Source: Candidatus Paracaedimonas acanthamoebae (lineage in GTDB: Bacteria > Pseudomonadota > Alphaproteobacteria > Caedimonadales > Caedimonadaceae). Taken from it: DNA of 32,000 nt. Positions 3,390 through 29,850 of the stretch are shown one piece after another (positions within the stretch are counted from its first letter, which is position 1; each line of letters starts with the position of its first letter). The notes beneath the pieces were generated by a model. That model was given only the letters and a program-made list of their open reading frames with translations. It did no database searches and was not told where the DNA came from. The stretch is from contig CP008936.1 in NCBI GenBank assembly GCA_000743035.1, positions 480,001-512,000 of the forward strand. The letters run 5' to 3'. A program made the translations under genes and the position numbers.

Positions 3390-3434
3390 TAACCCATCTC
3401 GGTTCCTTGTGTCCGCTTTATTGTAGCAAGATCA

Positions 3435-3790: not shown

Positions 3791-4033
3791 TAACATACAA
3801 TACACTCGATAAACCCTCTTATGATTCCATCTATGGCCCATTTGCCGAATCTTTATAAATAATTTCTTAAAACCATAACGAGGATACCTTTCTGTCAGCT
3901 CTAATAAAGTGCTCATAACATCCTCATCTTTTTTATCTGCCGGCTGATAACGATAAACTGAACGACTCAACTTAAGAGCATAGCAACTCCGTCGATAACT
4001 AAGTCCATGTGTTGACACCAGATAATCAACCAT
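3791..4033 (-). pseudogene. IS3-family OrfB, 5' fragment
   Basis: MVDYLVSTHGLSYRRSCYALKLSRSVYRYQP...YPRYGFKKL...WNHKRVYRVY is a typical OrfB N-terminus. No DDE core follows. Confidence 0.75.
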
Positions 4034-4053
4034 CTCTCTCTTCTCAGCCGGCT

Positions 4054-4320
4054 TTAGAGCTTTTTTTCAATCAAATCCTTCAAAGCTCTTGCCTCAAGTG
4101 AAAGATCAGCAAACATTCGTTTCAAACGGTTGTTTTCTTCTTCCAAGAATTTGAGACGCTTCATATCCAGGGCCTCCATCCCTCCATATTTTGAGCGCCA
4201 TTTAAAATACGTGGATTCAGCAATCCCATGTTCCCGACAAACATCTTTTACTAATCGACCTGATTCAACAGATCTCAAAATCCCTATAATCTGATATTCA
4301 CTAAAGCGTTCTTTCTTCAT
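4054..4320 (-). CDS. IS3-family OrfA (HTH)
   Basis: MKKERFSEYQIIGILRS...GIAESTYFKWRSKYGG plus a leucine zipper. The ATG at 4320 is preceded by AAGGAGG. The ORF track extends upstream to 4368. Confidence 0.85.
   Translation of the reverse strand: MKKERFSEYQIIGILRSVESGRLVKDVCREHGIAESTYFKWRSKYGGMEALDMKRLKFLEEENNRLKRMFADLSLEARALKDLIEKKL
4060..4066 (-). promoter_or_regulatory. A AAA AAG programmed -1 frameshift heptamer of the IS2-like remnant
   Basis: The orfA frame reads att gaa aaa aag ctc taa. The -1 frame continues KKALKPAEKREMVDYL into orfB'. Confidence 0.7.
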
Positions 4321-4713: not shown

Positions 4714-7700
4714 CTAAACCGAAGGAGGCTCACATTTAACAATAGCTCGAACATCACTCTGCTTGTCACTAACCATTTTTGCTAAATGCTTGATTGTTGG
4801 ATTAGAGAAGCATTCACTAATTGAGAGTGAAACTCCATAATGTGCTTTAATACGTAGAGTTACTTTATTAAGTAGTAAGGAGTGTCCTCCAAGTTTGAAG
4901 AAATTATCTGTAGTTCCTACTTGTTTTACATTAAGAATCTCAGACCAAATCTTGCATATTTCTTCTTCAACCTTATTTTTAGGTTCCTCGCTTGCAACTG
5001 CATCTATTAATTCTTGCTGTTGTATAGTCGGTAGCTTCTTTCGATCAATCTTACCATTAACTGTAAGAGGGAAGTTATCAACTTGTATGAATTTTGTTGG
5101 GACCATGTATTCGGGGACTTTTTGTATAAGATAATTCTTTATGTTTACAAATAGTTCTCTATTTGATTTTTCACCTTTGGCTTCATCACGTATCTTTATG
5201 TAGGCAATTAAACTACACTCACCTGCGGCATTAGTATTGCAAATGACTGCAGCTTTTTCTATTAACATGTTGAGATTAAGCAGACTCTCGATTTCACCTA
5301 GCTCAACTCGAAACCCCCTTATTTTTATTTGATGGTCGCGGCGTCCTAAGTATTCAATTGTACCAGTACTGCAGTATCTTGCAAGATCCCCTGATCTATA
5401 CATTTTACTGCTCTTATTGCAATCTGTACCAGTTTCTGAGGAAAATGGGTCAGTAATAAACCTTTGTTCTGTCAATTCAGGTCTGTTTAAATAACCATCA
5501 CTAACCCCATCTCCTCCTACATACATCTCTCCTATAACTCCTTCAGGTACTGGGGTGAGGTTGTCATCAAGAATATAAATTTTAGTATTATCTAATGGAG
5601 CACCAACTGGAGAATAAGGAGATCTTGAGTCTATGTGGTTTTTAGTAAGTTTTAAATAGGTTGAGTAAATAGTAGTTTCGGAAATGCCGTACATATTTGT
5701 CAGTTGTTGGTTTTTATCATGATAAGCATTCCACCACCACTCAAGCTTAGAAACTTCCAACTTTTCTCCGGCAAGAATAATATGCCGCAATTTGAGGTTT
5801 TTACGGAAATTAGATTGATTTGCAAGTATGAGAGAATCAAATGATGAGGGGGTTTGTGTTAAGATGGAAACTTCCTCTTTTTCAAGAAAGCTTAGAAATG
5901 CTTGAGTATCTTTTTTGATCTCGGTAGGTACAATAACTAGTTCCCGGCCATAAAGCAAAGCTCCCCATATTTCCCATACAGATAGGTCGAAAGTAAACGA
6001 GTGGAAAAGGCAAAAAGTATCTTCCTTATTAAAGTTGAATAAATGCTCACATGCACGGAATAAAGAAATCACATTTTTATGGCTAATAAGGGAGCCTTTA
6101 GGAAGGCCAGTTGACCCAGAAGTATAAATAATATAGGCGGTGTTATCTAGGGAAAATGATAATTCTAGATTTTCCAATGGCTGTTTTTCTATTTCTTCGT
6201 TATTGCCATCTAGGGTTATAATGATATTTTCATATGATTCATATCGATCTTTAAAAGAATTATTTGTTAATAATAATTCTACATTAGCGTCTTTGAGTAT
6301 AGAATCTATCCTATCCAGAGGATAAGAAGGATCTATAGGAACGTAGGCTGCTCCTGTTTTCATAACCGCTATCATAGCAATAATCAATTCAATAGAACTT
6401 TCTAAGCTTATAGCAATAAGTTTGCCTTTATTTGCTCTTTTCGTAATAAGGTAATGTGCGAGCTGATTTGATCGCTCGTTTAGCTGGCTATATGTTAAGG
6501 TACGACCATTAAAACGAAGACAATTCCTGTGAGGATATTTAGAAACTTGGTCTTCAAATATCTTAATTATATTTTCTTCCGGAAGATTAAAAGATAAATA
6601 CTCATGATTAAACTTCTGAAGAATATTATTTTTCTCTTCCTGTGAGAGTATAGGTAATATACTTATCTTACTACCAACATTATCAACAATACTGTAAAGA
6701 AGAGTTATGTAACTCTGCAGAAGATTAGAAATAGTATATTCCTTGAATAAATCTTCTGCATATTCTGCTTGAATTTCTAGCTGAGATTCTTGTTCTTGTA
6801 TAAAGATGGTTAAATCAAACTTAGAATAACTTCTTCCTTCCTCAGTTATTTTTGTCTTTATACCATCAAGATGTAAGAATTTATTCCAATCTTCTCTTGC
6901 AGTAAATAAAAGCTGGTATAAGGGGTTGCGATTTAATACACGGGGGATATTAATTCTCTTCACAAGCATATCGAAAGGAACATCTTGGTTGTCCTGAGCT
7001 GATGATAGAGTTTCTTTTAATGCTTCTAATACTTCTAAGAAGCTCATTTCTTCGCGTAAGACTAGGCGCAGAGGCAGCGTATTCATGAGCAAGCCAATTA
7101 ATTTGTCAGTGCCAGCATATACTCTACCTGAAACTGGCGTTCCTATGATTAAATCATTCTGATGTGTATAACGATAAACCAATACATAGAATGCTGAGAG
7201 TAAAACAGTGAATAAACTTGTATGATATTTTTCTGAGAGCTTTCTTAGTTGATTGGTTAGTTGCTGAGGAATAGCATGAGTAATAGTTTTACCACTATAC
7301 GATAAGGTTTCTGGTCGCTCAAAATCAGGCGATAAAGTAGTCAGATCTGCAGCCTGAGAGAGATGCTCTTGCCAAAAGCTAATTTGCCGTTCCATGGTGC
7401 TTGGTTTGAGAAATTGCCTAAACCAAGACGAATAGGCTTTATAAGTAAATGATGCTTCTGGAAAAGAGAGGGAAGGAACTTTTCTCAGCTTATTATATGT
7501 TTCAGAGAGCTCATCCAGAAATAAAGTTATTGATTGCCCATCAAGAATAATATGATGAAAATTTAGAACTAAAATATGATGATTTTCATCTATTTTAATA
7601 AGGCCTGCTTTAAAAAGAAATGGCTTAGTTAAATCAAACGTATGAAAAATAGTTTCATTAATTAAGCGCTCAAGAATTTTACTTTTAGAGCTACCATTAT

Positions 7701-10249: not shown

Positions 10250-11443
10250 TCAAATAGCGACTATTTTTTTAGCCTCTAAAAAACTATCACTATTTAATCT
10301 ATTTAAACACTCTTGCATTAGTAAAATACCAATTTCTAGATCATTTGTAATATTAGAAGAGCCTCCTTCACGTAAAAGGTTAATGAGGTCATCATATCTG
10401 AGATGTTTCGTTTGAGATAAACTTTCCATTATAATCACTTCGTCTTCTTGTACTTCCTTCACTTTTGAGTATGGGGGAAATATACTAAAATAAGGTCTAA
10501 TAAATTCTCTAACGGCGAGTAGGCCAAAACAAAGGCTTTTGGCAACAAAAAAGTATGATTTATTGGTTTGAGAGAATGAAGAACCAAAATATTCATCAAG
10601 CATTTTGCTATCTTGTATGTTGGTCAAGCGGAATTTTAAGGATAATGCAGCTAATTCCAAGTAGATGTCACCCATACCAGCACAATCCCAATCAATGAAT
10701 GTTGCTAATCTTTTGTTATTTATAAATATATTTTCCTCATGCAAATCAAAGTGGCATGGTTTTACACTTTCCGCATTATTTAATAGGCTAGCTAGATAAT
10801 CAAAATATTTCAAAAAATCTTGGTATTCTCTTGACGTTGGGATTTTACAAGTCTCAATTAAGGTGAAATGCTCTCTTCCATAATCTATGAGTGTTGTAGC
10901 GGGTGGAAAGGTTAAATTTGAATTATGCAACTTTTTAGTGGTTGCAAAAATTGATGTCATGATTTCCCAATCGATCTTTAACCAAGTTAAGAGCGTTGAT
11001 AAAGGGCGGCTCTCTAAAAACTCCATAACCATAAAGTAGGTGTTGCTAGTTTTTCCTGACAAAAAAACACAAGGGCCGAGCCCCTTTATCCCAGCATTTT
11101 CTGTCATCATAACTTCATTGGCGCTAGATTTTTCTAAGGTTCTTAATACTTTAAGAATATAAGGATATTTCTTCTCTAATTTAAAAACATCATTTCCACT
11201 ACATGAATTTTGAAGTTTTTGGCAATGGAAGCCTTCTTTTTTCAATTCATGTTCTAAGTCTTCTGCTAAGGGGGTCTCATTTAATTTTAAGACTCGAGAA
11301 AGACTATCTAGTTCATCTGCTGCAAACTTGGATTCACAAGCTAATGCACAGTTATTGAAGAATTGTATAAGAAGTATAAGAAAGATATATATATTTCGAG
11401 ACAGATCATGGGTGAGATTAAGTTGGCTAAAATATTTTATCAT
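10250..11443 (-). CDS. APH/choline-kinase-like phosphotransferase with an N-terminal hydrophobic signal-like segment
   Basis: Catalytic loop CHFDLHEENIF (HxDxxxxN) and IDWDCAGMGD (DxD-type metal site). N-terminal IYIFLILLIQFFNNCALA. Confidence 0.7.
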   Translation of the reverse strand: MIKYFSQLNLTHDLSRNIYIFLILLIQFFNNCALACESKFAADELDSLSRVLKLNETPLAEDLEHELKKEGFHCQKLQNSCSGNDVFKLEKKYPYILKVLRTLEKSSANEVMMTENAGIKGLGPCVFLSGKTSNTYFMVMEFLESRPLSTLLTWLKIDWEIMTSIFATTKKLHNSNLTFPPATTLIDYGREHFTLIETCKIPTSREYQDFLKYFDYLASLLNNAESVKPCHFDLHEENIFINNKRLATFIDWDCAGMGDIYLELAALSLKFRLTNIQDSKMLDEYFGSSFSQTNKSYFFVAKSLCFGLLAVREFIRPYFSIFPPYSKVKEVQEDEVIIMESLSQTKHLRYDDLINLLREGGSSNITNDLEIGILLMQECLNRLNSDSFLEAKKIVAI

Positions 11444-12672: not shown

Positions 12673-13860
12673 TTATAGGTTGTCTTGGTTTGAAGTTAAC
12701 TTTTTAATCTTACCTCCAAAAAACTCTGTCGCTTGTCTTAAAGACTCATCAGCCAAGTGAGCATATCTCTGTGTAGTTGAAGCTTGGGTATGACCTAAGA
12801 GTTTGCCTACAATATGCAGGCTCAAACCGCTAGATACCAAATGTGAAGCATGGGTATGTCGTAAATCATGAATGCGAACATTTTCAAATTCAGCTTCTTT
12901 TATGACTTTTTTCCAAAAAGTTTTAATTTCTTGTAAGGGTTGTCCTTCAATTTTGCTTGGAAAAAGATATGGTGAATTTTCTTTCTTAAATTTCTTAATA
13001 TCGTGAAGAACATCAATGGTTTTTTCTGAAAGGGGCAAATATTCTTTCTTTTTTTGCTTTGTTATGTGTGATGGTTTTGTCCAAATGCCTTTTTCAAGAT
13101 CAAACTGGTCCCACGTAGCTTGAAGAACTTCTCCTTTTCTGGCGCCAGTAAGAAGTAAAAATTTGAAGACGTAAGTCGTGAGGTGATGATTATATTTGTT
13201 TAATATAGACCATAGTCGTTGCAATTCTGTATCATTAAGCCATCTGTCGCGTTTTTCTTCTTGATATTTCTCAATGTCTTGAGCTGGATTATCTTCGCGC
13301 CAACCCCATTCTTTAGCAAGGCTAAACATTTTACTTAATAAAGATCGTACTCGATTGGCGAGGTACGGTTTATTTTTTAAATCACGGTGTAATTTTTGAA
13401 GTTCATACGAGGTGATTGATTTGATACCTTGTTTTCCAAACTTGGGTAATATGATAGAGGAAATCATATGAATATCATCACTAACACTTTTAGTGCGTTT
13501 GTTTACTTTTGCATGTAATTCTAAATATTCTTTGGTAAGGTCAGTTACGGTAAATGCTATTTTTTTCTCTTTAATATTGGTGGCTGGGTCTTCACCTAAA
13601 CTGATTTTTAATGAAAGGTGTTTAGCTTTTTCGCGTGCTTCTTCAGCTGTTATATTGCCATGAACTCCTATTTTAATTTTATGAGTCTTATGGAATTCAT
13701 TACGATATTGAAAAAAATAAGTCTTACGTCCTGTAGGATAAATTCGTAAATTAAAGCCCGTAATTTCAGTATCCCACACAAAAAGACGTTTAGTAGAATG
13801 GGCTGTCGCCGCTTCAACAGCTCTCTTTGTGAGTTTTATCTTATTAATTGATTGCATCAT
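12673..13860 (-). CDS. Tyrosine recombinase, P4-type phage/island integrase
   Basis: N-terminal arm-binding-type domain (LTKRAVEAA...FVWDTEITGFNLRIYPTGRKTYFFQYR). Catalytic TGARKGE, HDLRHTHAS and LGHTQASTTQRYAH. Confidence 0.9.
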   Translation of the reverse strand: MMQSINKIKLTKRAVEAATAHSTKRLFVWDTEITGFNLRIYPTGRKTYFFQYRNEFHKTHKIKIGVHGNITAEEAREKAKHLSLKISLGEDPATNIKEKKIAFTVTDLTKEYLELHAKVNKRTKSVSDDIHMISSIILPKFGKQGIKSITSYELQKLHRDLKNKPYLANRVRSLLSKMFSLAKEWGWREDNPAQDIEKYQEEKRDRWLNDTELQRLWSILNKYNHHLTTYVFKFLLLTGARKGEVLQATWDQFDLEKGIWTKPSHITKQKKKEYLPLSEKTIDVLHDIKKFKKENSPYLFPSKIEGQPLQEIKTFWKKVIKEAEFENVRIHDLRHTHASHLVSSGLSLHIVGKLLGHTQASTTQRYAHLADESLRQATEFFGGKIKKLTSNQDNL

Positions 13861-13939: not shown

Positions 13940-14051
13940 ATAAGATTAGATTGAGAGCAATTTTTATAAATTCAGAAAGAAGAATAAAAATTAAAAAATT
14001 AATAAAAACAATATAATAATTATATTAATATAGGTAGGTAGATATAAAAAC

Positions 14052-14103
14052 CTTCTGACTACGGATCAGAAGGTTAGGAGTTCGAATCTTCTCGGGCGCG
14101 CCA
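14052..14103 (+). tRNA. Orphan 3' half of tRNA-Arg(ACG): anticodon arm, variable loop, T arm, 3' acceptor strand and CCA. No 5' half.
   Basis: Stem TCTGA/TCAGA with loop CTACGGA (anticodon ACG). T arm AGGAG-TTCGAAT-CTTCT. Then CGGGCGC-G-CCA. The matching 5' acceptor strand GCGCCCG and the D arm are absent upstream, where the sequence is pure AT-rich spacer. Confidence 0.8.
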
Positions 14104-18559: not shown

Positions 18560-19234
18560 TTAACTGCTACTCCCCTGCTTATAAGCCTCATTAAGTAGTT
18601 CGCATTCATGCAAGGCCGCATCCATAAAGAGTTGTTGTATTTCTGTTTTTTCTGCTTCAGAGATTGTTTGAATGAGTGCATCAAGCGATTGGATGATTCT
18701 TATGGTTTGTTGTTCTGCATCCAAGGAAGTGCAATGCTTGATGAATTGCTTATAAGGATGATTGTGAGCATTGAGTTTTAGGCAACGTTTGTGCAAGTGA
18801 GTGGTAAGCCAGAACCTTGGCAAGATGGCGGCAAGGATGGGAAGGAATAGCCTTTTTTCAGTTAAGGTGTTTAGGAAGGCTATATATTCTTCGCATGCAG
18901 CCGTTGCCTTGTATATTTTCCCCTTAAATTTATCCAATTGAATGCTTAAACTTCCTGCTGCCGTAAGAGAAAATTGTGCATTTTGAGTAAATAGAAGGGT
19001 AATACATCTTGGATAGTTGAGCTTTGATAGAAGAATTAAATTTTCAGAAAGAGAACGCCAGACACGCTCTTGCTGATTAAGGAAGAAAGCAAAATGTACT
19101 TCTTTTAAAGCCTCATTAAACAAATGTTCATAAAAAGAGTGCTTGAGAGCAGCCTTATGAAGATACTGAAGAGAACTCTCGACATCTTGTAGGAACGGAG
19201 AATCAAACTTTACTACTTCTAGGGAGTTATGCAT
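18560..19234 (-). CDS. Hypothetical all-alpha protein
   Basis: The ATG at 19234 is preceded by AGAGGG at 6-7 nt. The ORF track start at 19270 would overlap the upstream RNA-like region. No motif recognised. Confidence 0.5.
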   Translation of the reverse strand: MHNSLEVVKFDSPFLQDVESSLQYLHKAALKHSFYEHLFNEALKEVHFAFFLNQQERVWRSLSENLILLSKLNYPRCITLLFTQNAQFSLTAAGSLSIQLDKFKGKIYKATAACEEYIAFLNTLTEKRLFLPILAAILPRFWLTTHLHKRCLKLNAHNHPYKQFIKHCTSLDAEQQTIRIIQSLDALIQTISEAEKTEIQQLFMDAALHECELLNEAYKQGSSS

Positions 19235-19312
19235 CAGATACCCTCTTGAATATGAGGTAAGTGGATGCACAATACATAGTGTGGTTTCCTGAAAAGATTC
19301 TCTCTTTTAAGT

Positions 19313-19346
19313 AAAAAAAGGGCTCAACCAACCAAGAATGGTTGAG
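19313..19346 (-). terminator. Rho-independent terminator
   Basis: Minus strand reads CTCAACCA-ttcttggt-TGGTTGAG, then CCC TTTTTTT. Confidence 0.65.
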
Positions 19347-19600
19347 TGAAGTTAAAGGAAAAGTTTTGTGGTAAGAAACTCTTGGTCTCTTATGACTTTG
19401 TATGTAAGGGATAAGAAATTTTCCAAAAATGTTGAGGAGTGAGAGTCTAGTCACTCTAAAGCAACTAGACTCTCTTTGAGGGGAGAGTTTAACGTGAGGA
19501 GTGGGGGAAGCCTCACGATTTGGCGCAATGAATGCACCAAATTCCATGATACTGTTGTTCACAGTTTTTATTTCAAAGAGGGATATATTTGAGCAATAGG
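19347..19600 (-). ncRNA. Hairpin-rich, locally GC-enriched segment: possible structured sRNA or 3'UTR
   Basis: An 11-bp perfect stem at 19441-19451/19464-19474, a 7-bp stem at 19493-19499/19511-19517 and a 7/8-bp stem near 19520-19540, ending at the terminator at 19313-19346. Strand and extent are uncertain. Confidence 0.3.
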
Positions 19601-19609
19601 AATTCATGA

Positions 19610-20086
19610 TCATAATGCAAGTTTCCGCTTATCGTCTTGCTTATCTAGAGAAAACCCATCAAGAGGATATCCTAAAGCTCTTAAATCTTGTTGGAGTTTT
19701 GAAATATTGCACCTGAATTGCTTTGACTGATCCCATTTGTTAAAAGGGTTCTTTCTTTCTTCAAGCCAGCCATTTTTAACAAGCGTAGAGATGCATCTTC
19801 GCATGGTTGTATCTGATGTATTCAACATCGTGTCTGAGAGAAGATCACTAACTCTTTTATAAATCCAACCATAACGAGGAGAAACATTAATATCCAACAT
19901 CTCCTCAGCAATCGGGCCTATAACACGAATACGACTTTCTTCTTCAATCATCTTGTCAAAGTCTTTTGCAGATCTTGTATACAAAAGAAATTGATTGAGA
20001 ATAATTGCAAGAGTTGGGTCTTTAGTTAGCTCGACCAGTTCTTCACAAACTGTAACTCTTTTTAAGGGGCGTGGTAGCTTATTCAT
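19610..20086 (-). CDS. Putative winged-helix DNA-binding protein (replication-initiator or regulator-like)
   Basis: 158 aa. GWIYKRVSDLLSDTMLNTSDTTMRRCISTLVKNGWLEERKNP looks like a wHTH recognition unit. GGGAGC lies upstream of the ATG. Confidence 0.55.
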   Translation of the reverse strand: MNKLPRPLKRVTVCEELVELTKDPTLAIILNQFLLYTRSAKDFDKMIEEESRIRVIGPIAEEMLDINVSPRYGWIYKRVSDLLSDTMLNTSDTTMRRCISTLVKNGWLEERKNPFNKWDQSKQFRCNISKLQQDLRALGYPLDGFSLDKQDDKRKLAL

Positions 20087-20163
20087 CTCGGGTGCTCCCT
20101 GATGCAGAGAATAAGGAATTTATCGATTCGCCACCTGTTGTGGGTCGAGGATATCTATATAAT

Positions 20164-20481
20164 TTATTGAAAAATATAGAATAAATTTCCTTTAAAAAGT
20201 TGATCTTTAATAAAAAAGAGGTCAAGAGGTTTTAATAACCTCTTGACCAGGTTAAGGAGGATATTGGAGTCTTTATTTGGGGAGGGAAGACAAAAAGACT
20301 CAACAGTTTCCTCGCTTAGAAAGGAGAAAGCTTTCTTCAAAAATGTAGAGAGTAATCTTTTAATGTAATATAAATTAAAATATTGTGCTTTTGGTGAAGC
20401 ACTAAAACAATTACGGCTTTTTGAAACGCCAGAAGTTAGACGGGCTAACAATAGCCCATAAGGATAGTATTTTTTATTCAT
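20164..20481 (-). CDS. Possible small basic protein, first gene of the leftward transcript
   Basis: The ATG at 20481 follows GGAG at 7 nt and lies downstream of the leftward promoter. However, a strong hairpin plus T-run lies inside its 3' part, so it may be non-coding. Confidence 0.25.
   Translation of the reverse strand: MNKKYYPYGLLLARLTSGVSKSRNCFSASPKAQYFNLYYIKRLLSTFLKKAFSFLSEETVESFCLPSPNKDSNILLNLVKRLLKPLDLFFIKDQLFKGNLFYIFQ
20212..20248 (-). terminator. Terminator- or attenuator-like hairpin
   Basis: 12-bp perfect stem GGTCAAGAGGTT/AACCTCTTGACC with a 5-nt loop, followed on the minus strand by TCTTTTTT. Confidence 0.5.
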
Positions 20482-20571
20482 TTCCCTGCTCCATTTATGT
20501 CGAGCAAATGATATCAATGGTAAATTTTTTAAATCTTAGCCAATAACGTCACAATTTTAATACACTTACTA

Positions 20572-20708: not shown

Positions 20709-21332
20709 ATGGATGCTCCCAAGCGCTTAATGTATACACGGCAGCTTACAAATATGCCACGTACTGTATTCTGTAGAAAATATGACGTGAGTCCAAGTTC
20801 TTTAGCAAAGTGGGAGCTAGGTGCAAAAGAATTGTCCCTTAGGAGTGCAAGAAAGTTATCCTTAATTTTTGAAAAAGAAGGGATTAGCGTAACTCCTGAG
20901 TGGTTATTGAATGGCGAGGGAGAAGCTGCTCGCAAAGCTAGAACTATTTCTAATAGAAAAGGCGCAGAGGCCATCGCTACTGAAAAGGATTTAATTGAAG
21001 AAGAGCTTCAAAAATTTGAAGCCTTCCATGAGAATATACTCTCTTTGAAGATTTATGATGATTCCTGTTTTCCAATTTATATCCCCGGGGATTATGTTGC
21101 AGGTGTGGCTTTAGAAGGGGAAAACATGCTCACGCTCAGAGAGAGGATATGTATCGTCCAATTACTAAATGGTGTTATATGTGTAAGAAAGATAATGGAT
21201 TATCAAGATGTAGATAATACGTTCGATTTAGAATGCATCAATCCATATACTGAGATAGCTCAAAAGACACTTAAGGCTGCCCAGCTAATTTCTGCGGCAC
21301 CTATTACTTTTTTTAGAAGGGTTTCTTCATAA
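20709..21332 (+). CDS. CI/LexA-like repressor: XRE-type HTH plus S24-like C-terminal domain
   Basis: N-terminal RQLTNMPRTVFCRKYDVSPSSLAKWELG. The C-terminal beta-rich domain has DDSCFPIYIPGDYV (GDSM-like) and ICVRK (Lys box-like). Confidence 0.7.
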   Translation: MDAPKRLMYTRQLTNMPRTVFCRKYDVSPSSLAKWELGAKELSLRSARKLSLIFEKEGISVTPEWLLNGEGEAARKARTISNRKGAEAIATEKDLIEEELQKFEAFHENILSLKIYDDSCFPIYIPGDYVAGVALEGENMLTLRERICIVQLLNGVICVRKIMDYQDVDNTFDLECINPYTEIAQKTLKAAQLISAAPITFFRRVSS

Positions 21333-22736
21333 TTTGATACGCAGCCATAGGGGAATGAAAAAGAAGGTAACTGCTGCTCCTAAGCTAATTAAGCATAAAC
21401 TGTTAAAGAAGTTTGTGTAAAATCCTAGATTCTCTATACCTGCTGTATCCCCTTGAGAGGTAAGTGTCGCAAGCTTACCTGAAAAATACTGGGCTATTCC
21501 GATGGAAAAGTACCAGATCCCAACATAGAAAGAAGCATATTTTTTAGGCGCTATCTTAGTAATAGCAGACATAGCGGTAGGCATTATACATATCTCTCCA
21601 ATAACAAAACACATCAATGCTAAGATTAAAAACCAGGGAGACACTAAACCTTGTGTTGCTAAGCGAGTTGATATCCATAAAACAAGAAAGCCAATACTTA
21701 CCATACCAAGACCGGCACTCATTTTAGTAAAAATGGAGTATGAGATTTTATACTTTTTTAGGTAACGCCATAATAAAGCTAATATGAATCCTAGCATTAA
21801 ATTGAAAAGTGGATCAATGGCTTGGAAAAACGTTGTTGGAATAGTAGTGATGCCAATATTAGAGAATCCCTTGAGGGTGCGGTCTAGATAGTTTTCTGCA
21901 AATAAAACAAGGGAGTTACCAGATTGCTCATAAAGGATAAAGAATGAAACAGTGATCAGAATCACTAGACCAAAAACTTTAATATTTTTAGTCTGATTTT
22001 CTGCATGAAATAGGGTCGCTAATGCAACGAGGATACCACTTATTAAAATGAAACTGATAATAAAGGTTGGTTGGATAGTAGCGTAGTTGAAAAAGAAATA
22101 AACAATCGCAATAATAATAGGCACCGATAATAATTTCAAGAGATCTTGACCTAGTTTGGCTATGCTAAGCTTTATGTATTTGCCAAAGAAGCCTAAGAAA
22201 AACAGTGCCAAGCAATCTGCAATGAGCATCATAAGAAAAGAAACTTTCCAATTAAGACACTCTCCTAAAACCGCACACATCACAGTACCAAACAGGGTTG
22301 CCAAATTCATAAGGGCATAAAAGAAAGTGAATTGTGCATCTCGGTTGAGAGAGTCTTTACCAATTATTTGACTTAACAAGGGTAAGATTGAAGGACGGAC
22401 TAAACCGCGCCCAACAAGAGCAAAGCTTGCTCCTAGGAAAAAATAAGTAAAGTCTAAGTATAATAAAAGAGAGCCAATAGCTGAACATAAAAATCCTATA
22501 AAAATTGAATTTTCTTGCCCTAGGTATTTGTCAGAAATCCAACCCCCAACTAAGGGAGTCAAATAGGACAGCATCATTAAAGATCCATAGGTTGCAAAAG
22601 CATTTTGATTTGAATAAAGAAGCTCTTTCACAAGAAACAGGACAACCATAGAACGTAGGCCATTAAAAACAAATCGCTCAATAGCGGCTAATAGAGTGAT
22701 TAACGCAATATTCTTACCTCTAATGAGAGAGATCAT
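21327..22736 (-). CDS. POT/PTR2-family (MFS) proton-dependent oligopeptide transporter
   Basis: ERFVFNGLRSMVVLFL...LTPLVGGWISDKYLGQ signature and about 12-14 hydrophobic spans. ATG at 22736 (TTG at 22742 in the ORF track). It overlaps the upstream gene by 17-23 nt. Confidence 0.8.
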   Translation of the reverse strand: MISLIRGKNIALITLLAAIERFVFNGLRSMVVLFLVKELLYSNQNAFATYGSLMMLSYLTPLVGGWISDKYLGQENSIFIGFLCSAIGSLLLYLDFTYFFLGASFALVGRGLVRPSILPLLSQIIGKDSLNRDAQFTFFYALMNLATLFGTVMCAVLGECLNWKVSFLMMLIADCLALFFLGFFGKYIKLSIAKLGQDLLKLLSVPIIIAIVYFFFNYATIQPTFIISFILISGILVALATLFHAENQTKNIKVFGLVILITVSFFILYEQSGNSLVLFAENYLDRTLKGFSNIGITTIPTTFFQAIDPLFNLMLGFILALLWRYLKKYKISYSIFTKMSAGLGMVSIGFLVLWISTRLATQGLVSPWFLILALMCFVIGEICIMPTAMSAITKIAPKKYASFYVGIWYFSIGIAQYFSGKLATLTSQGDTAGIENLGFYTNFFNSLCLISLGAAVTFFFIPLWLRIKL

Positions 22737-24162
22737 TAGCAATATTCCTTATGCTTGGGGGCAATGTAATAGCAAAGATATGAAAAATTTCTTCAACCTG
22801 ACGCTTACTTATATTAAGCAGCCTTAGTCCATTTAAACTCAAATTTGATAAATCCTTAAACTGTTTCCAAATATCGGTAATTTGTAATAAATGCTTACAA
22901 AGAGGCGAGAGATCAAGAGAGTCACTACTTTTCTCTAAAGCTTTAGGAAAGTATAAAAGATGCATTGCAAGATTTTGTTGGAGTTGGTCTTCGATTTCTA
23001 AGGGTGTGTCCTTATTAAGATTTAAATGCTTTTCAAAACCAAAAATTCGGGCACATTGAAAACATACCATAGCAGATGGATGAGCCAAAAAATCTGGACT
23101 TTTAAGAAAGGAAATATAGCCTTCTTCAAGAGGTTGCTTAAAATTGTCAATTTTAAGAAAGAGGAGAGCAATAAAGTTTTTGAAACACGTAAAATCTTCT
23201 TCTGGTATGGGGAAGTGAGAATGGATAAAGTTAGAAGAAAATACTTCCACCTCGTTCAAGAATTGCTCCATTGTAATACCAAAATAAGGATCAAGTTTAT
23301 AAGCCTTGTTTGGCTGTTCTAGTAAATAGCCGTGAGACCTATGAATAAGCTCAGTATTAATGCCATATCTGTTCCAAGCGCCAAGAATTTGTCTCCAATG
23401 GTGTTCTTGGCGATTACCAATAACATATATAATTTTGTCTGCTTCTTGCTTATAAATGCGCTCATAAATGGCGGCCATATCTATGCTTGAGTAAGCGAGA
23501 AATTCATCATTTCCTTTTAAGAAAACAGAGTAAGAGTTTCCTAAAGGAACCATGATATTGCCCTGATGCGTTTCAATAAGATTTTTAGCTTTAAACAGAG
23601 ATATTACTGTTTCTATATGAGGGATGTAGCGACTTTCACCACTGTATTGATCGAAGCTAACATGTAAAAAGTCGAGCATTTTTTGAATTTCGGAAAGGGT
23701 AATGGCGGATATTTTATCGCGCAAAGAAACATAATCACCTTGAGCTTGCTGAAGAGTAATTGCTTCTTGACGAACTTTAGCATCTAATTTTTGATCTTTT
23801 GCTGCGCGTAAAGCAACATCCTTCTGAATTTCGAATATTAGCTTAGGATTAGCTTGTAAGCTCTCAACCACTTGATGAAGATTTTGAGAGCGCTCTTTTA
23901 AACCATACAATAAACAGCCCATTTGAGGTCCGTGATCGCCATAGTGAATATCGCCGATGGTCGTGAAGCCGCTAAATTTTAGAAGCCTTTTTAGACTTTC
24001 GCCAAGAATTGTTGTCCTTAAGTGCCCTAGATGCATAGGTTTAGCAATGTTAGGCCCACAGTAATCGATGATTATCTTTTTATCTGTTTTGCCTTTAGTA
24101 AAAAATTGCTGTGTTCCTTGCTTTTCTAACAGCTCAAGCTTTTCAATAAGGTTATCCCCCAT
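22720..24162 (-). CDS. Arginyl-tRNA synthetase paralogue lacking the N-terminal domain (480 aa)
   Basis: ArgRS-type catalytic core: IIIDYCGPNIAKPMHLGHLRTTILGESLKRLL, HYGDHGPQMG, FDQYSGESRY, YSSIDMAAIYER, IIYVIGNRQEHHW. The HIGH box starts at residue 44, versus about 120-130 in canonical ArgRS. Confidence 0.75.
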   Translation of the reverse strand: MGDNLIEKLELLEKQGTQQFFTKGKTDKKIIIDYCGPNIAKPMHLGHLRTTILGESLKRLLKFSGFTTIGDIHYGDHGPQMGCLLYGLKERSQNLHQVVESLQANPKLIFEIQKDVALRAAKDQKLDAKVRQEAITLQQAQGDYVSLRDKISAITLSEIQKMLDFLHVSFDQYSGESRYIPHIETVISLFKAKNLIETHQGNIMVPLGNSYSVFLKGNDEFLAYSSIDMAAIYERIYKQEADKIIYVIGNRQEHHWRQILGAWNRYGINTELIHRSHGYLLEQPNKAYKLDPYFGITMEQFLNEVEVFSSNFIHSHFPIPEEDFTCFKNFIALLFLKIDNFKQPLEEGYISFLKSPDFLAHPSAMVCFQCARIFGFEKHLNLNKDTPLEIEDQLQQNLAMHLLYFPKALEKSSDSLDLSPLCKHLLQITDIWKQFKDLSNLSLNGLRLLNISKRQVEEIFHIFAITLPPSIRNIANDLSH

Positions 24163-24171: not shown

Positions 24172-25113
24172 CTATATCTCTGTAATTTTTTTTAGTTCTT
24201 TATAAACGGCACCTTGTAAAGAAATAAATTCTATTATTGTTTTCTCTATACTTTTTTGGTGTTCAGGTTCAATGAATTCATTTTTGAAGGTAAAGTTTTT
24301 AGAAAAATCACCATGACCAAATGCAAGATCTGCTTCTTCGTGCTGTCGAAATACTTTGAGAGCGTCCCTCGGAATAAGATTAAGGTCTTCCATTCTTTTC
24401 CATTCTCTCAATCTTTGTTTTATATATCCTGGAGAATTAGAAGGGCTTTCAGTAATACTGATGCAAAGGCTGTAACTCGTGAAATCATCCTTTGCAAGTT
24501 GGCTCAAAAAACTTATTAAATTTTGAGTTTCTTTTAAAGGGCCGGTTGCTTGTATTTTTTCTTGTGATATTCCAGCTTTCCGGAGACCGTAATATAAAAA
24601 TTGTCCATGCCAACGTTCTTCTTCTAAGTAGTCATCCAGGTAACTGAGTTCCTCAAAGCTGAGATCATTTTCTAATGCTGGCATGATATGAGCGACAGCA
24701 GAATTAATAATATGGTATGATTCAAATAATGATCTTAGGAGAGTTTCTTTGTTTAAATTTGGTGCTGTATCTAACCCCTGCTTCTGTAACATAGCATGAC
24801 GCATGGCTCTCCCGGTTGCTAGGGTATGCTCATGGTAACTGTTCCATGGTAAGGATTGTGCTTCCTTTAATTCCAGAAAGCCAAGTTCATATAAATATAA
24901 TAAAATATCATCATGCTTGGCGCTGAAAGCTTGATCTGTATGACTTTTAGCGTTATTTATTTCTGCAGGTTGGTTAATTTGTTGAAGAGTCTCATTGATT
25001 GAATTAACTGCATTTTTAAAATGGATGGTGCGCCATCCAGAGTTAAAACCGATAATTTGGTCATCCTTTAATATAGGTAAACATAAGCTGGAAAATTCAA
25101 ATCTCAGAGCCAT
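24172..25113 (-). CDS. All-alpha protein with ExxH-type motifs: possible heme-oxygenase-like diiron (HDO/PqqC/TenA-fold) enzyme
   Basis: About 313-317 aa. LEEERWHGQF, YHEHTL and FRQHEEADLAFGHGDF suggest carboxylate/His metal ligands on helices. The fold assignment is a guess. ATG at 25113 after GGGGGAG (TTG at 25125 in the ORF track). A 9-nt gap separates it from the ArgRS-like gene. Confidence 0.6.
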   Translation of the reverse strand: MALRFEFSSLCLPILKDDQIIGFNSGWRTIHFKNAVNSINETLQQINQPAEINNAKSHTDQAFSAKHDDILLYLYELGFLELKEAQSLPWNSYHEHTLATGRAMRHAMLQKQGLDTAPNLNKETLLRSLFESYHIINSAVAHIMPALENDLSFEELSYLDDYLEEERWHGQFLYYGLRKAGISQEKIQATGPLKETQNLISFLSQLAKDDFTSYSLCISITESPSNSPGYIKQRLREWKRMEDLNLIPRDALKVFRQHEEADLAFGHGDFSKNFTFKNEFIEPEHQKSIEKTIIEFISLQGAVYKELKKITEI

Positions 25114-25220: not shown

Positions 25221-25287
25221 TAGGCTAGTACCATCAGCGACCTCATATATCATTTATGTCATATACAAGCTAATGGTACCTAGCCTA
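25221..25287 (-). promoter_or_regulatory. Long imperfect hairpin between the sORF and the downstream operon
   Basis: TAGGCTAGTACCATCAGC (25221-25238) pairs with GCTAATGGTACCTAGCCTA (25269-25287). That is about 17 bp with one mismatch and one bulge, and a 30-nt loop. No clear T-run follows. Confidence 0.5.
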
Positions 25288-25324: not shown

Positions 25325-25432
25325 TCAATCCCGTGCTAAAGGATCAAAGAATTCTTTCTCTACACATATTTCTATTTCAAACGGCTTAGTATTTTCTTTA
25401 GGTTGACAAGTAGTTGTATTAGATATCTTCAT
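25325..25432 (-). CDS. 35-codon sORF: MKISNTTTCQPKENTKPFEIEICVEKEFFDPLARD
   Basis: The ATG is preceded by AAGGAG at 7 nt and by a near-consensus promoter. It lies below the ORF-track length cut-off. Confidence 0.5.
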   Translation of the reverse strand: MKISNTTTCQPKENTKPFEIEICVEKEFFDPLARD

Positions 25433-25464: not shown

Positions 25465-25492
25465 ATGTTAGCAATGATCTTTTATATGTCAA
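25465..25492 (-). promoter_or_regulatory. Near-consensus sigma70 promoter (TTGACA - 16 nt - TAACAT)
   Basis: Read on the minus strand: gagTTGACAtataaaagatcattgcTAACATgtg, about 30 nt upstream of the sORF ATG. Confidence 0.55.
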
Positions 25493-26483: not shown

Positions 26484-26996
26484 ATGAGTCTCAGCATAAG
26501 GTTCCATGGATCTTATATTGCTTTGTTAGCAGAATTATTGCTACATTCCCTATCTTTTAGCTCTGGCATTCATAAAGATCTTAGGGAATATGAGTGGGAA
26601 GATATCTATCAAATAGGACTAGTCTCAAACGCTGCTTATTATTACTTTAATTGTGCAAACGATGTTAAAACTAGCATGGAAGAGTTAGAGCAAGCTGGTT
26701 GGGCATGTAAATTGATAGGAGATGGTCCTTTTCATGTCATACGAGCGGAGTATGGTCCTCTTGTTGTTTTAGGCTTTAAGGGCACAACTAAGACAGAAGA
26801 TTATGCCTCCGATTTAAATGCAATCAGATTAACTGTCACAGAGAGTGAACAACAAGGGGTCGCCCATCGCGGAATTTATTCTTATACAAAAAAATTACCT
26901 GCTTCTATTAATGCTCTTTTTAATCCAGATGATGGTGATGAGCTTCTTGTTCTTGCTGGGCACAGTCTAGGTGGAGCAGTAGCGCAATTAAAGGGA
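26484..26996 (+). pseudogene. Class-3 (fungal-type) lipase, N-terminal part truncated by the IS3 end
   Basis: VVLGFKGTTKTEDYASDL, GVAHRGIY and the nucleophile elbow AGHSLGGAVAQ. The IS terminal TG begins at 26997, 7 codons after the Ser. Confidence 0.75.
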
Positions 26997-27041
26997 TGAT
27001 CTTGCTACAATAAAGCGGACACAAGGAACCGAGATGGGTTA

Positions 27042-27344
27042 ATGTTATTGAAAGGAGAGAACATGACCCAGAAATACGATAAAGAATTTAAAATTAATGC
27101 GGTTAAAGTTTATTTGAGTAATGACAAGAGCATTGAGAAGATCGCTTTAGATTTAGGGATTTCGCGTGCCAGTTTAGGGCACTGGATTAAACAATACCGG
27201 CGTGAGGGAGAGAGAAGTTTTCCTGGCAGTGGCCATGTTGTTGAGGAAGAATTAAGAGCGCTTAAGCGGGAGCTTTATCTTGTTCGCCAGGAGCGAGATA
27301 TCTTAAAAAACCACCTAAATGGCACCCCTTTCCCTAATAAATAG
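27042..27344 (+). CDS. IS3-family OrfA (HTH) with its 3' end replaced by IS110 sequence
   Basis: Identical to 3087-3389. It diverges from the IS3 consensus after ...RQERDILK at the A-run at 27305-27310. Confidence 0.85.
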   Translation: MLLKGENMTQKYDKEFKINAVKVYLSNDKSIEKIALDLGISRASLGHWIKQYRREGERSFPGSGHVVEEELRALKRELYLVRQERDILKNHLNGTPFPNK

Positions 27345-27540
27345 AAACTCGCGCTCGTTAACTGCTAAAGTTGAGCTATCAAAGAGAGCGGCCGTCTGCT
27401 TATTGGTGGATTACCCCGTTAAAAAACATGGTCCAGGGAGTACAACGAACCCGGCATTGGAGGTACAAACCCCGTTTAGGAAAGTGATTTATTCGTTACC
27501 CTGCTCTTTGATTCTATAGATAAACAAGGAGAAGAGGTAA
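27311..27540 (+). ncRNA. Candidate bridge (seek) RNA in the IS110 left end
   Basis: 230-nt relatively GC-rich non-coding end 5' of the recombinase gene. Two homologous modules (ATTGGTGGA..ACCCCGTT at 27402-27420 and ATTGGAGGT..ACCCCGTT at 27456-27476) are each followed by a junction-matching string. Confidence 0.4.
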
Positions 27541-27543
27541 GTG

Positions 27544-28908
27544 ATGACTCAATCTAACAGACAATCCAGTATGCCAATTATTCATCAAAATGCTGCTGGG
27601 ATTGATATTGGTGCTAAGTTTCACGTTGTTGCTGTAGGGAGTGATAAAGCAAAAGAACCAGTTCGTACGTTTCAAAGTTTTACCACAGATTTACATGCTA
27701 TGGCAAAATGGCTTAAAAGCTGTGAGGTCACCAGCATTGCTATGGAATCCACAGGTATTTATTGGATTCCTGCTTTTGAGATCTTAGAGAATTATGGTTT
27801 TGAGGTATTTTTAGTTAATCCACGAGAAGCTAAAAATGTTCCTGGACGTAAAACAGACGTCAATGATGCGCAATGGATTCAACGGTTACATCAATTTGGT
27901 TTGTTACGTGCTAGCTTCAGACCAGAAAAACAAATTACTGTGCTACGTGCTTATATTAGACAACGTGAACGTATGCTTGAATTCAGAGCCTCTCATATCC
28001 AGCATATGCAAAAAGCTTTAATGCAAATGAACTTACAGTTGCATCATGTCGTATCGGATATAACGGGAGCCACAGGCATGAAGATCATTCGTGCGATTAT
28101 GAATGGTGAACGTTGCCCTGCTGTATTAGCAGAACATAGAGACATACGTTGTAAGGAATCCATTAAAACTATTGAGGAATCCTTAAAGGGTAATTATCAA
28201 GAAGAGCATTTGTTTTCTTTAACTCAAGCTGTTGAATTATTCGATTATTACACACAAAAAATTAATGAGTGTGATCGTCGAATAGAAGAGACATTAAGCT
28301 TGCTTGGAAAAGATAATAAGTTGCCTGATCAACCTCTACCCAAAGCCAGGCATCGCACTAAACAACCTAATAGCTTAAGCTTTGATGTAAGAGCATCCCT
28401 TTACCAAGCATTAGGAATGGACTTAACACAAATACACGGTGTTGGACCTTCATTAGCCTTAAAATTAATATCAGAATGTGGCACTGATATGTCTCGCTGG
28501 CCGAGCAGCAAGCACTTTACTTCTTGGCTATGTCTTTCTCCAGGGAATAAGGTATCAGGAGGGAAAGTATTATCATCACGAACACGGCGTTCCTCAAGTC
28601 GTGCGGCAGCAGCATTAAGATTGGCTGCTGTAACAATTGGAAAGACAAATACGGCTCTTGGTGCGTTTTATAGACGACTCTCGGCTCGCATTGGTAAATC
28701 AAAGGCAATTACTGCAACAGCTAGAAAAATGGCAGTATTATTTTTTAATGCTCTGCGTTATGGAATGCAATATGTTGATCCAGGTGCCAATTACTATGAG
28801 GCACGATATCAAAAGCGGGTTCTTGATAACTTATCAAAGCGAGCTGCTGCTTTAGGTTATATATTGCAAGAGAATAAAATGCAGGACTTGGTACAGGGAG
28901 TTTCTTAG
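27544..28908 (+). CDS. IS110-family DEDD transposase/recombinase
   Basis: Identical to the copy L protein. The stop TAG at 28906-28908 is 2 nt from the element end. Confidence 0.92.
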   Translation: MTQSNRQSSMPIIHQNAAGIDIGAKFHVVAVGSDKAKEPVRTFQSFTTDLHAMAKWLKSCEVTSIAMESTGIYWIPAFEILENYGFEVFLVNPREAKNVPGRKTDVNDAQWIQRLHQFGLLRASFRPEKQITVLRAYIRQRERMLEFRASHIQHMQKALMQMNLQLHHVVSDITGATGMKIIRAIMNGERCPAVLAEHRDIRCKESIKTIEESLKGNYQEEHLFSLTQAVELFDYYTQKINECDRRIEETLSLLGKDNKLPDQPLPKARHRTKQPNSLSFDVRASLYQALGMDLTQIHGVGPSLALKLISECGTDMSRWPSSKHFTSWLCLSPGNKVSGGKVLSSRTRRSSSRAAAALRLAAVTIGKTNTALGAFYRRLSARIGKSKAITATARKMAVLFFNALRYGMQYVDPGANYYEARYQKRVLDNLSKRAAALGYILQENKMQDLVQGVS

Positions 28909-28956
28909 GAAAGCAGTTGCCATCTTCTCCGAACCCCGAGGCAAAGGTACGAATTC

Positions 28957-29832
28957 ATGAAGCATCATACCACTTTATTTTCCTTGGATCAGATGGCGCA
29001 AGTCTTAGGGGTTTCTCGCAGTGGGTATTACGATTTTATTAAAAGGAGTCCCAGCAAGAGAGAACTGGAGAACACTGAGACTGTTAAAAGAATGAGGACT
29101 ATTTTTGAGGAGAGCCGAGAAACTTATGGCAGTCCTCGGATCCATGCAGAACTTTGTGCTCAGGGAACTTTTTGTTCTCGAGTTAAAGTCGCTCGATTGA
29201 TGCAGAAGAATGATATCCAAGCCAAGATGTATAGGAAGTTTGTTAAAACAACAAAACGTTCAGAAAATATCACTCGTCCAACCCAGGATCTCGTTCAGCA
29301 GAATTTTTATTCTCCTCTTCCTAATAGAATTTGGGCCGCAGATATTACTTTTATTGCCATCAATAGAACCTGGGCTTATCTGGCTATTATTCTTGATCTA
29401 TTCTCTCGAAAAGTGGTGGGAATGGCTTTGAGTGATCACATGAGAAGTTCTTTAATTTTAGCAGCACTTAATCAAGCTCTCTTATTAAGGAGACCTCCTT
29501 CAGGGCTTATTCATCATTCTGATATGGGGAGCCAATATACAAGCAATAACCTTTATGAAATAGCTCAAACTCATGGAATAAAACTGAGTCATGGAAAAAC
29601 AGGATGTGCTTATGACAATGCTGCAATGGAGAGCTTCTTTCATACGCTTAAAACAGAGCATGTCTATTTTAAGAACTATAAAACTTTAGAAGAAGCAAAA
29701 ACCGATATCTTTGAATACATATTCACATTTTATAACTCTAAAAGGAGGCACTCGACACTCAACTATCAAAGTCCAAATCAGTGGGAATACAATCATTACA
29801 AAAATCAAACCATCTCAGTTCACAATGTCTAA
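28957..29832 (+). CDS. IS3-family transposase OrfB (DDE/rve core)
   Basis: Identical to 599-1474. Its ATG overlaps the reconstructed orfA stop (ATGA). Confidence 0.95.
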   Translation: MKHHTTLFSLDQMAQVLGVSRSGYYDFIKRSPSKRELENTETVKRMRTIFEESRETYGSPRIHAELCAQGTFCSRVKVARLMQKNDIQAKMYRKFVKTTKRSENITRPTQDLVQQNFYSPLPNRIWAADITFIAINRTWAYLAIILDLFSRKVVGMALSDHMRSSLILAALNQALLLRRPPSGLIHHSDMGSQYTSNNLYEIAQTHGIKLSHGKTGCAYDNAAMESFFHTLKTEHVYFKNYKTLEEAKTDIFEYIFTFYNSKRRHSTLNYQSPNQWEYNHYKNQTISVHNV

Positions 29833-29850
29833 ATTTTTGTAGCAAGATCA

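Follow-up and report, generated by a model that had tools for sequence, protein, structure and literature searches.

An ArgRS-like protein lacking the tRNA-binding N-domain is most likely part of a mobile, RiPP-type peptide-modification cassette in Candidatus Paracaedimonas acanthamoebae

Canonical arginyl-tRNA synthetase (ArgRS) is one of the few aminoacyl-tRNA synthetases (aaRSs) that require tRNA for the activation of their amino acid. Truncated or diverged aaRSs that have kept activation and have lost or re-used their tRNA-recognition domains include EpmA/PoxA, which is involved in EF-P lysylation, Glu-Q-RS/YadB and MshC. To our knowledge, none of these is derived from ArgRS or encoded in a peptide-precursor cassette, and we know of no non-translational ArgRS-derived protein among the aaRS paralogues or in the literature searched. 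Here, we describe a 480-residue ArgRS-like protein encoded in a 32,000-nucleotide stretch of the Candidatus Paracaedimonas acanthamoebae genome (contig CP008936.1, positions 480,001 to 512,000), which is referred to below in its full length as the window. Its gene stands between those of a diiron oxidase of the heme-oxygenase-like type (HDO) and a peptide transporter, downstream of a small open reading frame (ORF) and convergent with a regulator gene. Sequence comparison suggests that the protein most likely acts outside translation, as a dedicated part of a mobile peptide-modification cassette of the type that yields peptides that are ribosomally synthesized and then post-translationally modified (RiPPs).

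The role proposed for this protein has a parallel in the hydrazine synthetases (Spb40/ThzN), in which a MetRS-like class I aaRS domain O-aminoacylates N-hydroxylamines, the products of an N-oxygenase, without tRNA (PMC12376268). By analogy, the window protein may likewise be a class I aaRS-derived unit that works without tRNA on the product of an oxygenase in a biosynthetic cluster. Hydrazine synthetases are, however, MetRS-derived, fused to a zinc cupin, active on free N-hydroxy-lysine and paired with flavin N-hydroxylases, whereas the window protein is ArgRS-derived (PF00750), stand-alone, cupin-free, paired with an HDO and tied to a putative ribosomal peptide. HDOs themselves are known to act on arginine. 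SznF N-oxygenates arginine (PMC13108848), and in mangotoxin biosynthesis the HDO MboA modifies the C-terminal Arg of Leu-Ala-Arg (PMC13185094). The window cassette resembles the latter system in having an HDO and a short peptide with a critical Arg, and the window peptide also contains L-A-R; this common tripeptide is a lead rather than a test. Mangotoxin differs in that its peptide is built by ATP-grasp ligases and not by the ribosome, and MboA depends on a partner, MboB, and on an Arg at the C-terminus. No relation between MboA and the window HDO was detected at the sequence level. Membership in the mangotoxin (mbo) system was rejected, as the cassette has neither the ATP-grasp ligases MboC/D nor the redox partner MboB.

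Two groups of ribosomal peptides are also comparable. Tiarin (trifolitoxin family) clusters encode aaRS copies matching the key residue of the precursor, and an overexpressed sensitive ArgRS also titrates the toxin (bioRxiv 10.64898/2025.12.02.691738). The window cassette shares with them a small, apparently ribosomal peptide with Arg as its key residue, for which the cluster encodes the corresponding aaRS type, and by this analogy its product would be a Trojan-horse aaRS inhibitor. In contrast, TfxB/TfxC and the x-Q-G-C motif of tiarins are absent from the window cassette, and tiarin aaRS copies are full-length and active. The cassette proteins matched only PF00750 (with sub-threshold tRNA-synt_1e and DALR_1), PTR2/MFS_1 and HTH_3, and the peptide ends in FDPLARD; the cassette was therefore not assigned to the tiarins. 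In the biosynthesis of pyrroloquinoline quinone, mycofactocin and the pearlins/PEARLs, the last residues of a short peptide are processed by enzymes guided by a leader-peptide recognition element (RRE), as may be the case here, and PqqC shares the heme-oxygenase-like fold. PEARLs differ in using LanB-like enzymes and aminoacyl-tRNA, and the window cassette has neither a radical S-adenosylmethionine (SAM) enzyme nor a protease. The combination of an ArgRS-derived protein, an HDO fused to a putative RRE and an "FDPxxxx" precursor was not described in the literature searched.

The ArgRS-like gene (22720-24162, minus strand) is an intact ORF, and its product is an exact match to the hypothetical protein IM40_02585 of Ca. 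Paracaedimonas acanthamoebae, an amoeba endosymbiont. The protein consists of a catalytic Rossmann domain and a C-terminal helical domain. Pfam analysis assigned the ArgRS catalytic domain PF00750 to residues 21-290 (E value, 4.3e-46), with an additional sub-threshold match to tRNA-synt_1e. The argS equivalog profile TIGR00456 aligned residues 13-435 with profile positions 95-525 of 569, and the score of 173.1 bits was 88 bits short of the curated cutoff of 261.65. The alignment with Escherichia coli ArgRS (4oby) began at residue 114 of 4oby, which corresponds to residue 28 of the window protein. The absent N-terminal (Add1) domain amounts to approximately 86-95 residues. In canonical ArgRS this domain recognizes A20 of the D-loop. 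Its Pfam model, PF03485, did not match the protein, and a hidden Markov model (HMM) constructed from 59 canonical ArgRS N-regions detected nothing in a six-frame search of the window (best E value, 1.3; 3.6e-22 for a positive-control ArgRS). The ATG is preceded by in-frame stop codons at distances of 2 and 4 codons, and 9 nt separate it from the end of the preceding gene. Together with the negative six-frame search, these features excluded a hidden N-domain or a mis-called start.

A preliminary description of this DNA, made by eye from the sequence, had located the motifs PNIAKPMHLGH, GESRY, IIYVIGNRQEHHW and KLDPYFG, and had concluded that the HIGH motif begins at residue 44, leaving about 80-90 N-terminal residues missing. 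The motif positions were exact (residues 37-47, 175-179, 244-256 and 289-295, respectively), HLGH does begin at residue 44, and the N-terminal deletion is borne out by the TIGR00456 and 4oby alignments, the upstream stop codons and the negative N-domain search. That description had also regarded the KMSKS-equivalent loop as degenerate and the resemblance to a DALR anticodon-binding domain as faint. Its alignment of the loop with KLDPYFG was correct, but the loop is not degenerate, since K-(L/H)-D-P-(Y/H)-F-G is invariant in all six members of the protein family described below. The DALR_1 match is indeed weak (17.6 bits against a Pfam threshold of 22.3), but the C-terminal fold has been kept, as shown below by structure comparison.

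The amino acid-binding site was mapped by alignment with canonical ArgRS sequences and placed on the E. coli ArgRS-arginine structure, in which arginine is bound by D118, N123, H132, Y313, D317, R324 and Q341 (PMC3956977). The counterparts in the window protein are D33, N38, H47, Y224, D228, R235 and Q252, and all seven are invariant in the six family members, as are H44 and the HIGH-loop lysine K41. Because the residues that hold the free α-amino and α-carboxyl groups are retained, the pocket fits free L-Arg as a ligand. The canonical loop K-T-R-S/A-G (MSTR/KTRSG) has become K289-L-D-P-Y-F-G295, and its invariance across the family indicates that the KMSKS loop was replaced rather than degraded. 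Neither the anticodon-domain signature GxTGPYxQYxxxR nor the C-terminal PExM with its terminal Met was present in the alignment. The AlphaFold 2 (AF2) model of the protein (pLDDT, 92.7) superposed on ArgRS crystal structures with TM scores of 0.82-0.88 over about 500 alignment columns, the C-terminal helical domain included. A comparison of the net charge and pI of the C-terminal domain with those of canonical ArgRS was uninformative.

Compared with canonical ArgRS (E. coli 4OBY/5YYM and human 4Q2T), the protein has kept the Rossmann core, HIGH, the HIGH-loop Lys, the arginine ligands and the two-domain fold. In contrast, it lacks Add1, its catalytic loop has been swapped, the anticodon signature and the terminal Met have been lost, its score falls below the equivalog cutoff and its gene is found in a mobile accessory setting. 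Judged by alignment, the L-arginine pocket and the ATP-binding HIGH elements are complete, every recognizable tRNA-identity module is gone, and the arginine and ATP chemistry looks intact. Standard charging of tRNA-Arg, which the preliminary description had doubted, has very probably been lost, as the Add1/A20 pocket, GxTGPYxQYxxxR and PExM are absent or rewritten. Its overall reading of a non-standard ArgRS paralogue therefore holds, with the corrections that the loop has been re-purposed, that the C-terminal fold is kept and that the cassette context had been missed. The two functions it suggested, ligation to another acceptor and an inhibitor-linked role, remain the two leading mechanisms.

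The gene preceding the ArgRS-like gene (24172-25113, minus strand, with an alternative TTG start at 25125) encodes a 313-residue protein that by itself matched no Pfam or NCBIfam model. Its AF2 model (pLDDT, 80.7) comprises a small β/α N-domain followed by a helical bundle. A Foldseek search against the Protein Data Bank (PDB) returned CADD, UndA, BesC, PolF, AetD, PqqC and TenA, the first six with a probability of 1.0 and target TM scores of up to 0.67. According to this model, the protein has the seven-helix fold of the HDOs. An exhaustive HMM search collected 167 distant HDO relatives, several of which, but not the window protein, match PF14518; a PDB sequence search with the HDO profile returned nothing. 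The candidate metal ligands E131, H142, E166, E222, H258, D262 and H267 are invariant and are located on the core helices, at places where metal ligands would be expected in an HDO. The N-domain is modeled as β-β-β-β-α-α-β, and among the relatives it repeatedly gave weak winged-helix matches (HTH_IclR, 22.4 bits; HTH_47; the RRE-type PaaA-like_N, E value 0.13). These predictions are consistent with the N-domain being a putative RRE.

Upstream of the HDO gene lies a small ORF of 35 codons (25325-25432, minus strand) that encodes MKISNTTTCQPKENTKPFEIEICVEKEFFDPLARD, a putative precursor or scaffold peptide with the C-terminal motif F-D-P-L-A-R-D-stop. Its ATG has a strong ribosome-binding site, AAGGAG, 7 nt upstream. 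The top site in a consensus scan for sigma-70-like promoters, TTGACA-16-TAACAT with TG (25465-25492, minus strand), is positioned upstream of the ORF and is a consensus match only. Small ORFs of 29-35 codons, each equipped with a ribosome-binding site, were found in all six family loci, the orthologues having C-termini such as ...EFFDLLARN, ...DFFDPLARD, ...ESFDPIARD and ...EAFDPIARD; the family peptide ends in ...FDP-(L/I)-A-R-(D/N). The invariant Arg at position -2 is encoded by four different codons (CGG, AGA, CGC and AGG), and the adjacent residues also vary synonymously. Selection therefore acts at the level of the peptide.

The spacer between the peptide and oxidase genes contains a hairpin, CUUGUAUAU-GACAUAAAUG-AUAUAUGAG, with a 9-bp stem and a 10-nt loop (25242-25269, minus strand). 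This element is a near-invariant block of 28-30 nt in all six loci (in the others at L001 954-981, L004 6907-6934, L006 3881-3908, L007 6967-6994 and L009 636-663), although the encoded proteins are only 38-51% identical. All nine pairs are kept; three vary one-sidedly by changes that are G-U-compatible on the sense strand, and none is broken. The hairpin may serve in RNA processing or attenuation, or as an operator.

The ArgRS-like paralogue family has six members with 38-51% identity in a search of 5.8 billion protein clusters, beyond which the next-best matches are ordinary ArgRSs with approximately 25% identity. Among the species-representative genomes searched, the gene was present only in "Alphaproteobacteria bacterium 41-28". 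The PLSDB plasmids contained no HDO homologue and only canonical argS, and a metagenome scan yielded one short locus. In all six loci, the cassette consists of the ORF of 29-35 codons, a spacer of 170-310 nt, a protein of approximately 300-313 residues without a Pfam match, the ArgRS-like protein, a transporter of the POT/PTR2 family and a convergent XRE-type regulator. The window transporter (21327-22742, minus strand) belongs to the major facilitator superfamily (MFS) and is of the di/tripeptide:H+ symporter type (PF00854, E value 2.8e-26; TIGR00924, 154.9 bits, above the cutoff). The last 23 nt of the ArgRS-like gene are shared with the start of the transporter gene, which has the same position in all family loci. 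The ArgRS-like gene is translationally coupled to the upstream HDO gene and the downstream transporter gene. Across the family, the neighbors of the cassette are plasmid and conjugative genes (ParA/ParB, TraL/E/K, TrbI, MobA/MobL and TraD). In the window, the cassette lies within 23.56 kb bounded by perfect inverted insertion sequence (IS) copies of 2855 nt.

The distant HDO relatives revealed further cassettes, among them clear RiPP clusters with PqqD, radical SAM and ABC transporter genes and with tandem precursors. L010 (HDO P0075) encodes a precursor ending in ...RFDPCSTI*, a 480-residue ArgRS-like protein and an MFS transporter, and has kept the gene order of the window (peptide, HDO, ArgRS-like, MFS). 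L016 (HDO P0077) has a precursor ending in ...EFDPLATI*, then five tandem genes ending in FDPV(A/V)(K/R)(I/V)*, with a methyltransferase and a 410-residue ArgRS-like protein. L013 (HDO P0079) combines a precursor ending in ...GFDPATRM* with PqqD, a methyltransferase, a B12-radical SAM enzyme, an ABC transporter and an M14-like peptidase. L097/L098 (HDO P0082) have a ...SYDPLTRL* precursor, a full-length ArgRS with N-domain and DALR (2433-4094, plus strand, in L097; 615-2276, plus strand, in L098) and tailoring enzymes. The precursors follow a common pattern of a β-strand-like stretch, (F/Y)(D/N)P, exactly four residues and a stop. An ArgRS homologue, in one case full-length, accompanies the HDO in four of the five informative lineages. 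Across the lineages, the HDOs are approximately 25-33% identical and the ArgRS-like proteins approximately 18-24%. Since the lineages are so divergent, and since the L097 enzyme belongs to a different ArgRS subtype, the association of HDO and ArgRS is not explained by chance.

The ArgRS-like proteins of the distant cassettes are altered at the catalytic site. HIGH is modified in L010 and L016 (YVTH and NFHH, respectively), and the pocket is changed as well. The peptide residue at -2 is R where the pocket is intact (window family), K or R where the two acids are kept (L016) and T where the acids are lost (L010); this apparent co-variation covers three lineages only and is suggestive. A neighbor-joining tree grouped the three truncated ArgRS-like lineages on long branches, yet L010 and L016 scored higher against the canonical-ArgRS HMM than against the family HMM.

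Several other genes were observed at these distant loci. The L097/L098 cluster also contains two stand-alone condensation-domain proteins, a carbamoyltransferase, an aldo-keto reductase and a PhyH dioxygenase. At the cluster edge of L013/L014 (1-733, minus strand) is a gene for ArgJ, the ornithine acetyltransferase. ArgJ has been proposed as the target of mangotoxin, and this gene could be a resistance copy or a coincidence. In L101, two tandem ORFs of 33 codons (1728-1829 and 2106-2207, both minus strand) encode MKAKVKAAKKALRF(T/P)RL(T/P)IKTKVKAGMGR(V/I)NSL downstream of and opposite to the HDO relative P0093, and are possibly a variant precursor type without the FDP motif.

Because the ArgRS-like gene always travels on mobile DNA together with genes for a peptide, an oxidase, a peptide transporter and a repressor, its product most likely acts on a modified peptide, or against it, and not in translation. 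We tentatively favor, with a probability of roughly 0.4, a tRNA-independent tailoring ligase within an undescribed RiPP-type pathway. In this scheme, the winged-helix domain of the HDO would dock the β-strand-like leader of the peptide (KPFKIKI...), and the diiron center, with the free C-terminal carboxylate as an anchor, would oxidize the C-terminal end, where the invariant Arg or a residue beside it might for instance be N- or C-hydroxylated. The ArgRS-like enzyme, without tRNA, would form arginyl-AMP from free L-Arg and ATP and pass the arginyl group to the oxidized peptide, at the new hydroxyl or hydroxylamine, instead of to the 2'-OH of A76. A short Arg-containing product would then be released and moved by the POT transporter, and expression would be under the control of the XRE/CI-like repressor.

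Several points weigh against such a ligase. Given the tRNA requirement of canonical ArgRS, tRNA-independent adenylation needs an adaptation that is as yet undemonstrated, and arginyl transfer alone leaves the invariance of the peptide Arg unexplained. The altered HIGH and pocket of L010 and L016 mean that the ancestral role could have been binding rather than catalysis. The full-length ArgRS of L097 is most simply a self-resistance enzyme, which favors an immunity function. The cassette encodes neither a protease nor a follow-up enzyme such as a cupin, and POT transporters usually import peptides.

The strongest of the alternatives, though less likely in our estimate, is immunity by target mimicry, in which the cassette would make an arginine-derived antimetabolite directed at ArgRS from the ...A-R-(D/N) end, the ArgRS-like protein would shield the producer because its conserved arginine/adenylate site would bind and perhaps inactivate the warhead in an ATP-dependent manner, and the transporter would act in export. 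The tiarin logic described above would fit an invariant peptide Arg accompanied by an ArgRS homologue in the cassette, and L097 pairs its ...YDPLTRL precursor with a full-length ArgRS. The pocket acids are kept where residue -2 is R or K/R, as in the window family and L016, and are lost where it is T, as in L010. A binding role would also suit the loss of the tRNA modules and the tolerated HIGH changes of L010 and L016, and bacteriocin cassettes typically have such a layout, with a precursor, a single enzyme, an immunity gene, a pump and a repressor. However, truncated-aaRS decoys are not known, the characterized aaRS immunity genes being all full-length and active, and stoichiometric sequestration is costly. 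L010 keeps its ArgRS-like gene although its peptide has no basic residue, so that this copy cannot be an ArgRS mimic. Furthermore, all members of the window family have the catalytic residues K41, H44 and H47, which are dispensable for a pure binder.

It is doubtful that the ArgRS-like protein is a non-catalytic partner of the oxidase, which would hold the peptide C-terminus with the -2 Arg in the amino acid pocket and present it to the HDO in the manner of degenerate ThiF-like or MbnC/TglI-type partners. The two genes are tightly coupled (9 nt apart in the window and 4 nt in L010), as would be expected of such partners, and both the apparent co-variation of the pocket with residue -2 over three lineages and the altered HIGH of L010 and L016 point in the same direction. 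Against this, the binders of the free α-amine (N38, the G36 backbone and H47) are conserved, yet an internal peptide residue has no free amine to offer. The ATP-site residues are likewise invariant in the window family, and the HDO already has a recognition-type domain of its own.

We consider it very improbable that the protein is a functional, inhibitor-insensitive ArgRS that still charges tRNA-Arg, either as a resistance copy or even as the sole argS. Resistant aaRS copies are common in biosynthetic clusters, and the catalytic core and two-domain fold have been kept; however, three features of tRNA recognition (the Add1/A20 pocket, the anticodon-domain signature and the C-terminal Met) have been lost, and the TIGR00456 score is far below the equivalog cutoff, by the 88 bits given above. 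The gene is located in an IS-flanked island with an integrase here and on plasmid or conjugative backbones elsewhere, and, being carried by a single genome among the species representatives searched, it cannot have an essential housekeeping role. Least credible of all is that the small ORF is a regulatory leader or ribosome-arrest peptide (SpeFL/TnaC-like) of an operon for arginine or peptide uptake and metabolism with the ArgRS-like protein as its arginine sensor, for although conservation in the peptide is highest at the C-terminus, the first enzyme gene follows a 170-310-nt spacer with a conserved hairpin and POT transporters are usually importers, the HDO is predicted to carry a winged-helix domain of the leader-binding kind, and the five tandem paralogous precursors of L016 and the PqqD/radical SAM/ABC setting of L013, both typical of RiPP precursors, argue strongly against it.

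Beyond the window, we regard as evenly balanced the broader proposal of an undescribed RiPP class around RRE-fused HDOs and "(F/Y)(D/N)P + 4 residues" precursors, into which ArgRS was recruited repeatedly, and in which the window copy would be either the first ArgRS-derived tRNA-independent peptide arginyl-transferase or the first truncated-aaRS decoy against a second, non-tiarin group of ribosomal Trojan-horse ArgRS inhibitors. The comparative data point to a rare, mobile and uncharacterized family of peptide natural products built on a diiron HDO. This class of oxidase has so far been tied to ribosomal peptides only through genome mining, and the precursor motif is simple and searchable. A natural tRNA-free derivative of ArgRS with an intact pocket would, if confirmed, show how the dependence on tRNA can be bypassed, and a ligase of this kind would add a new tool that arginylates peptides with ATP and without tRNA. 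Should the product instead be directed at ArgRS, ribosomal peptides would offer a second way to aaRS inhibitors, separate from that of the tiarins. The cassette is found in an endosymbiont of amoebae and on conjugative elements, which suggests that it serves competition or interaction with the host within protists.

The regulator gene of the window (20709-21332, plus strand) encodes a 207-residue protein with an XRE-type helix-turn-helix domain (HTH_3, E value 3.4e-4, 21 bits against a cutoff of 23). In every family locus, a homologue (approximately 190-216 residues across the family) is encoded convergent to the cassette, and homologues likewise occur beside the distant HDO relatives in L015 and L099. 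The C-terminal domain is β-rich and has a conserved motif, DD(S/T)xxPxYxPGD ... RK, in the window, L001, L004, L007, L009, L015 and L099. This motif resembles the self-cleaving S24 domain of LexA/CI and may hint at SOS-type induction; Pfam detects no S24 domain in the protein. The PADLOC defense models matched neither the ArgRS-like protein nor the HDO nor the transporter, and gave only a marginal RmrA match for the repressor; a known anti-phage defense system was set aside on this outcome.

The IS copies that bound the island (581-3435 and 26996-29850) form a perfect 2855-nt inverted repeat, each consisting of an IS3-family element (OrfA and an rve integrase) that carries an inserted IS110-family transposase. 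The pair frames the 23.56 kb in the manner of a composite transposon, and the right copy cuts off a Lipase_3 gene (26484-26999). A phage-type tyrosine integrase gene (12673-13860, minus strand) adjoins a partial tRNA match (14034-14093, plus strand; Rfam, 30.4 bits), and the two resemble the attachment-site remnant of an integrated element. A search of the window for RNA leaders (T-box or other) found none; the only Rfam gathering matches were this tRNA fragment and isrN, and ARAGORN found no tRNA in the window. The isrN match, to an Hfq-binding small RNA family, is full-length (3913-4055, plus strand; 57.1 bits against a gathering threshold of 44) and is situated just inside the left IS copy.

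The island also holds a nonribosomal peptide synthetase (NRPS) gene (4714-9966, minus strand), whose product of 1750 residues has AMP-binding, Condensation, AMP-binding and PP-binding domains. It is adjoined by a gene for an APH/choline-kinase-like phosphotransferase (10250-11443, minus strand), and such cargo is unusual in an endosymbiont genome of 1.7 Mb. A second protein of the heme-oxygenase fold, a 236-residue member of the TENA/THI-4/PQQC family, is encoded at 18560-19270 (minus strand) after three small ORFs without a family match (19227-20517, minus strand). In L099/L100, a TenA-like gene is likewise found directly upstream of a distant relative of the cassette HDO.

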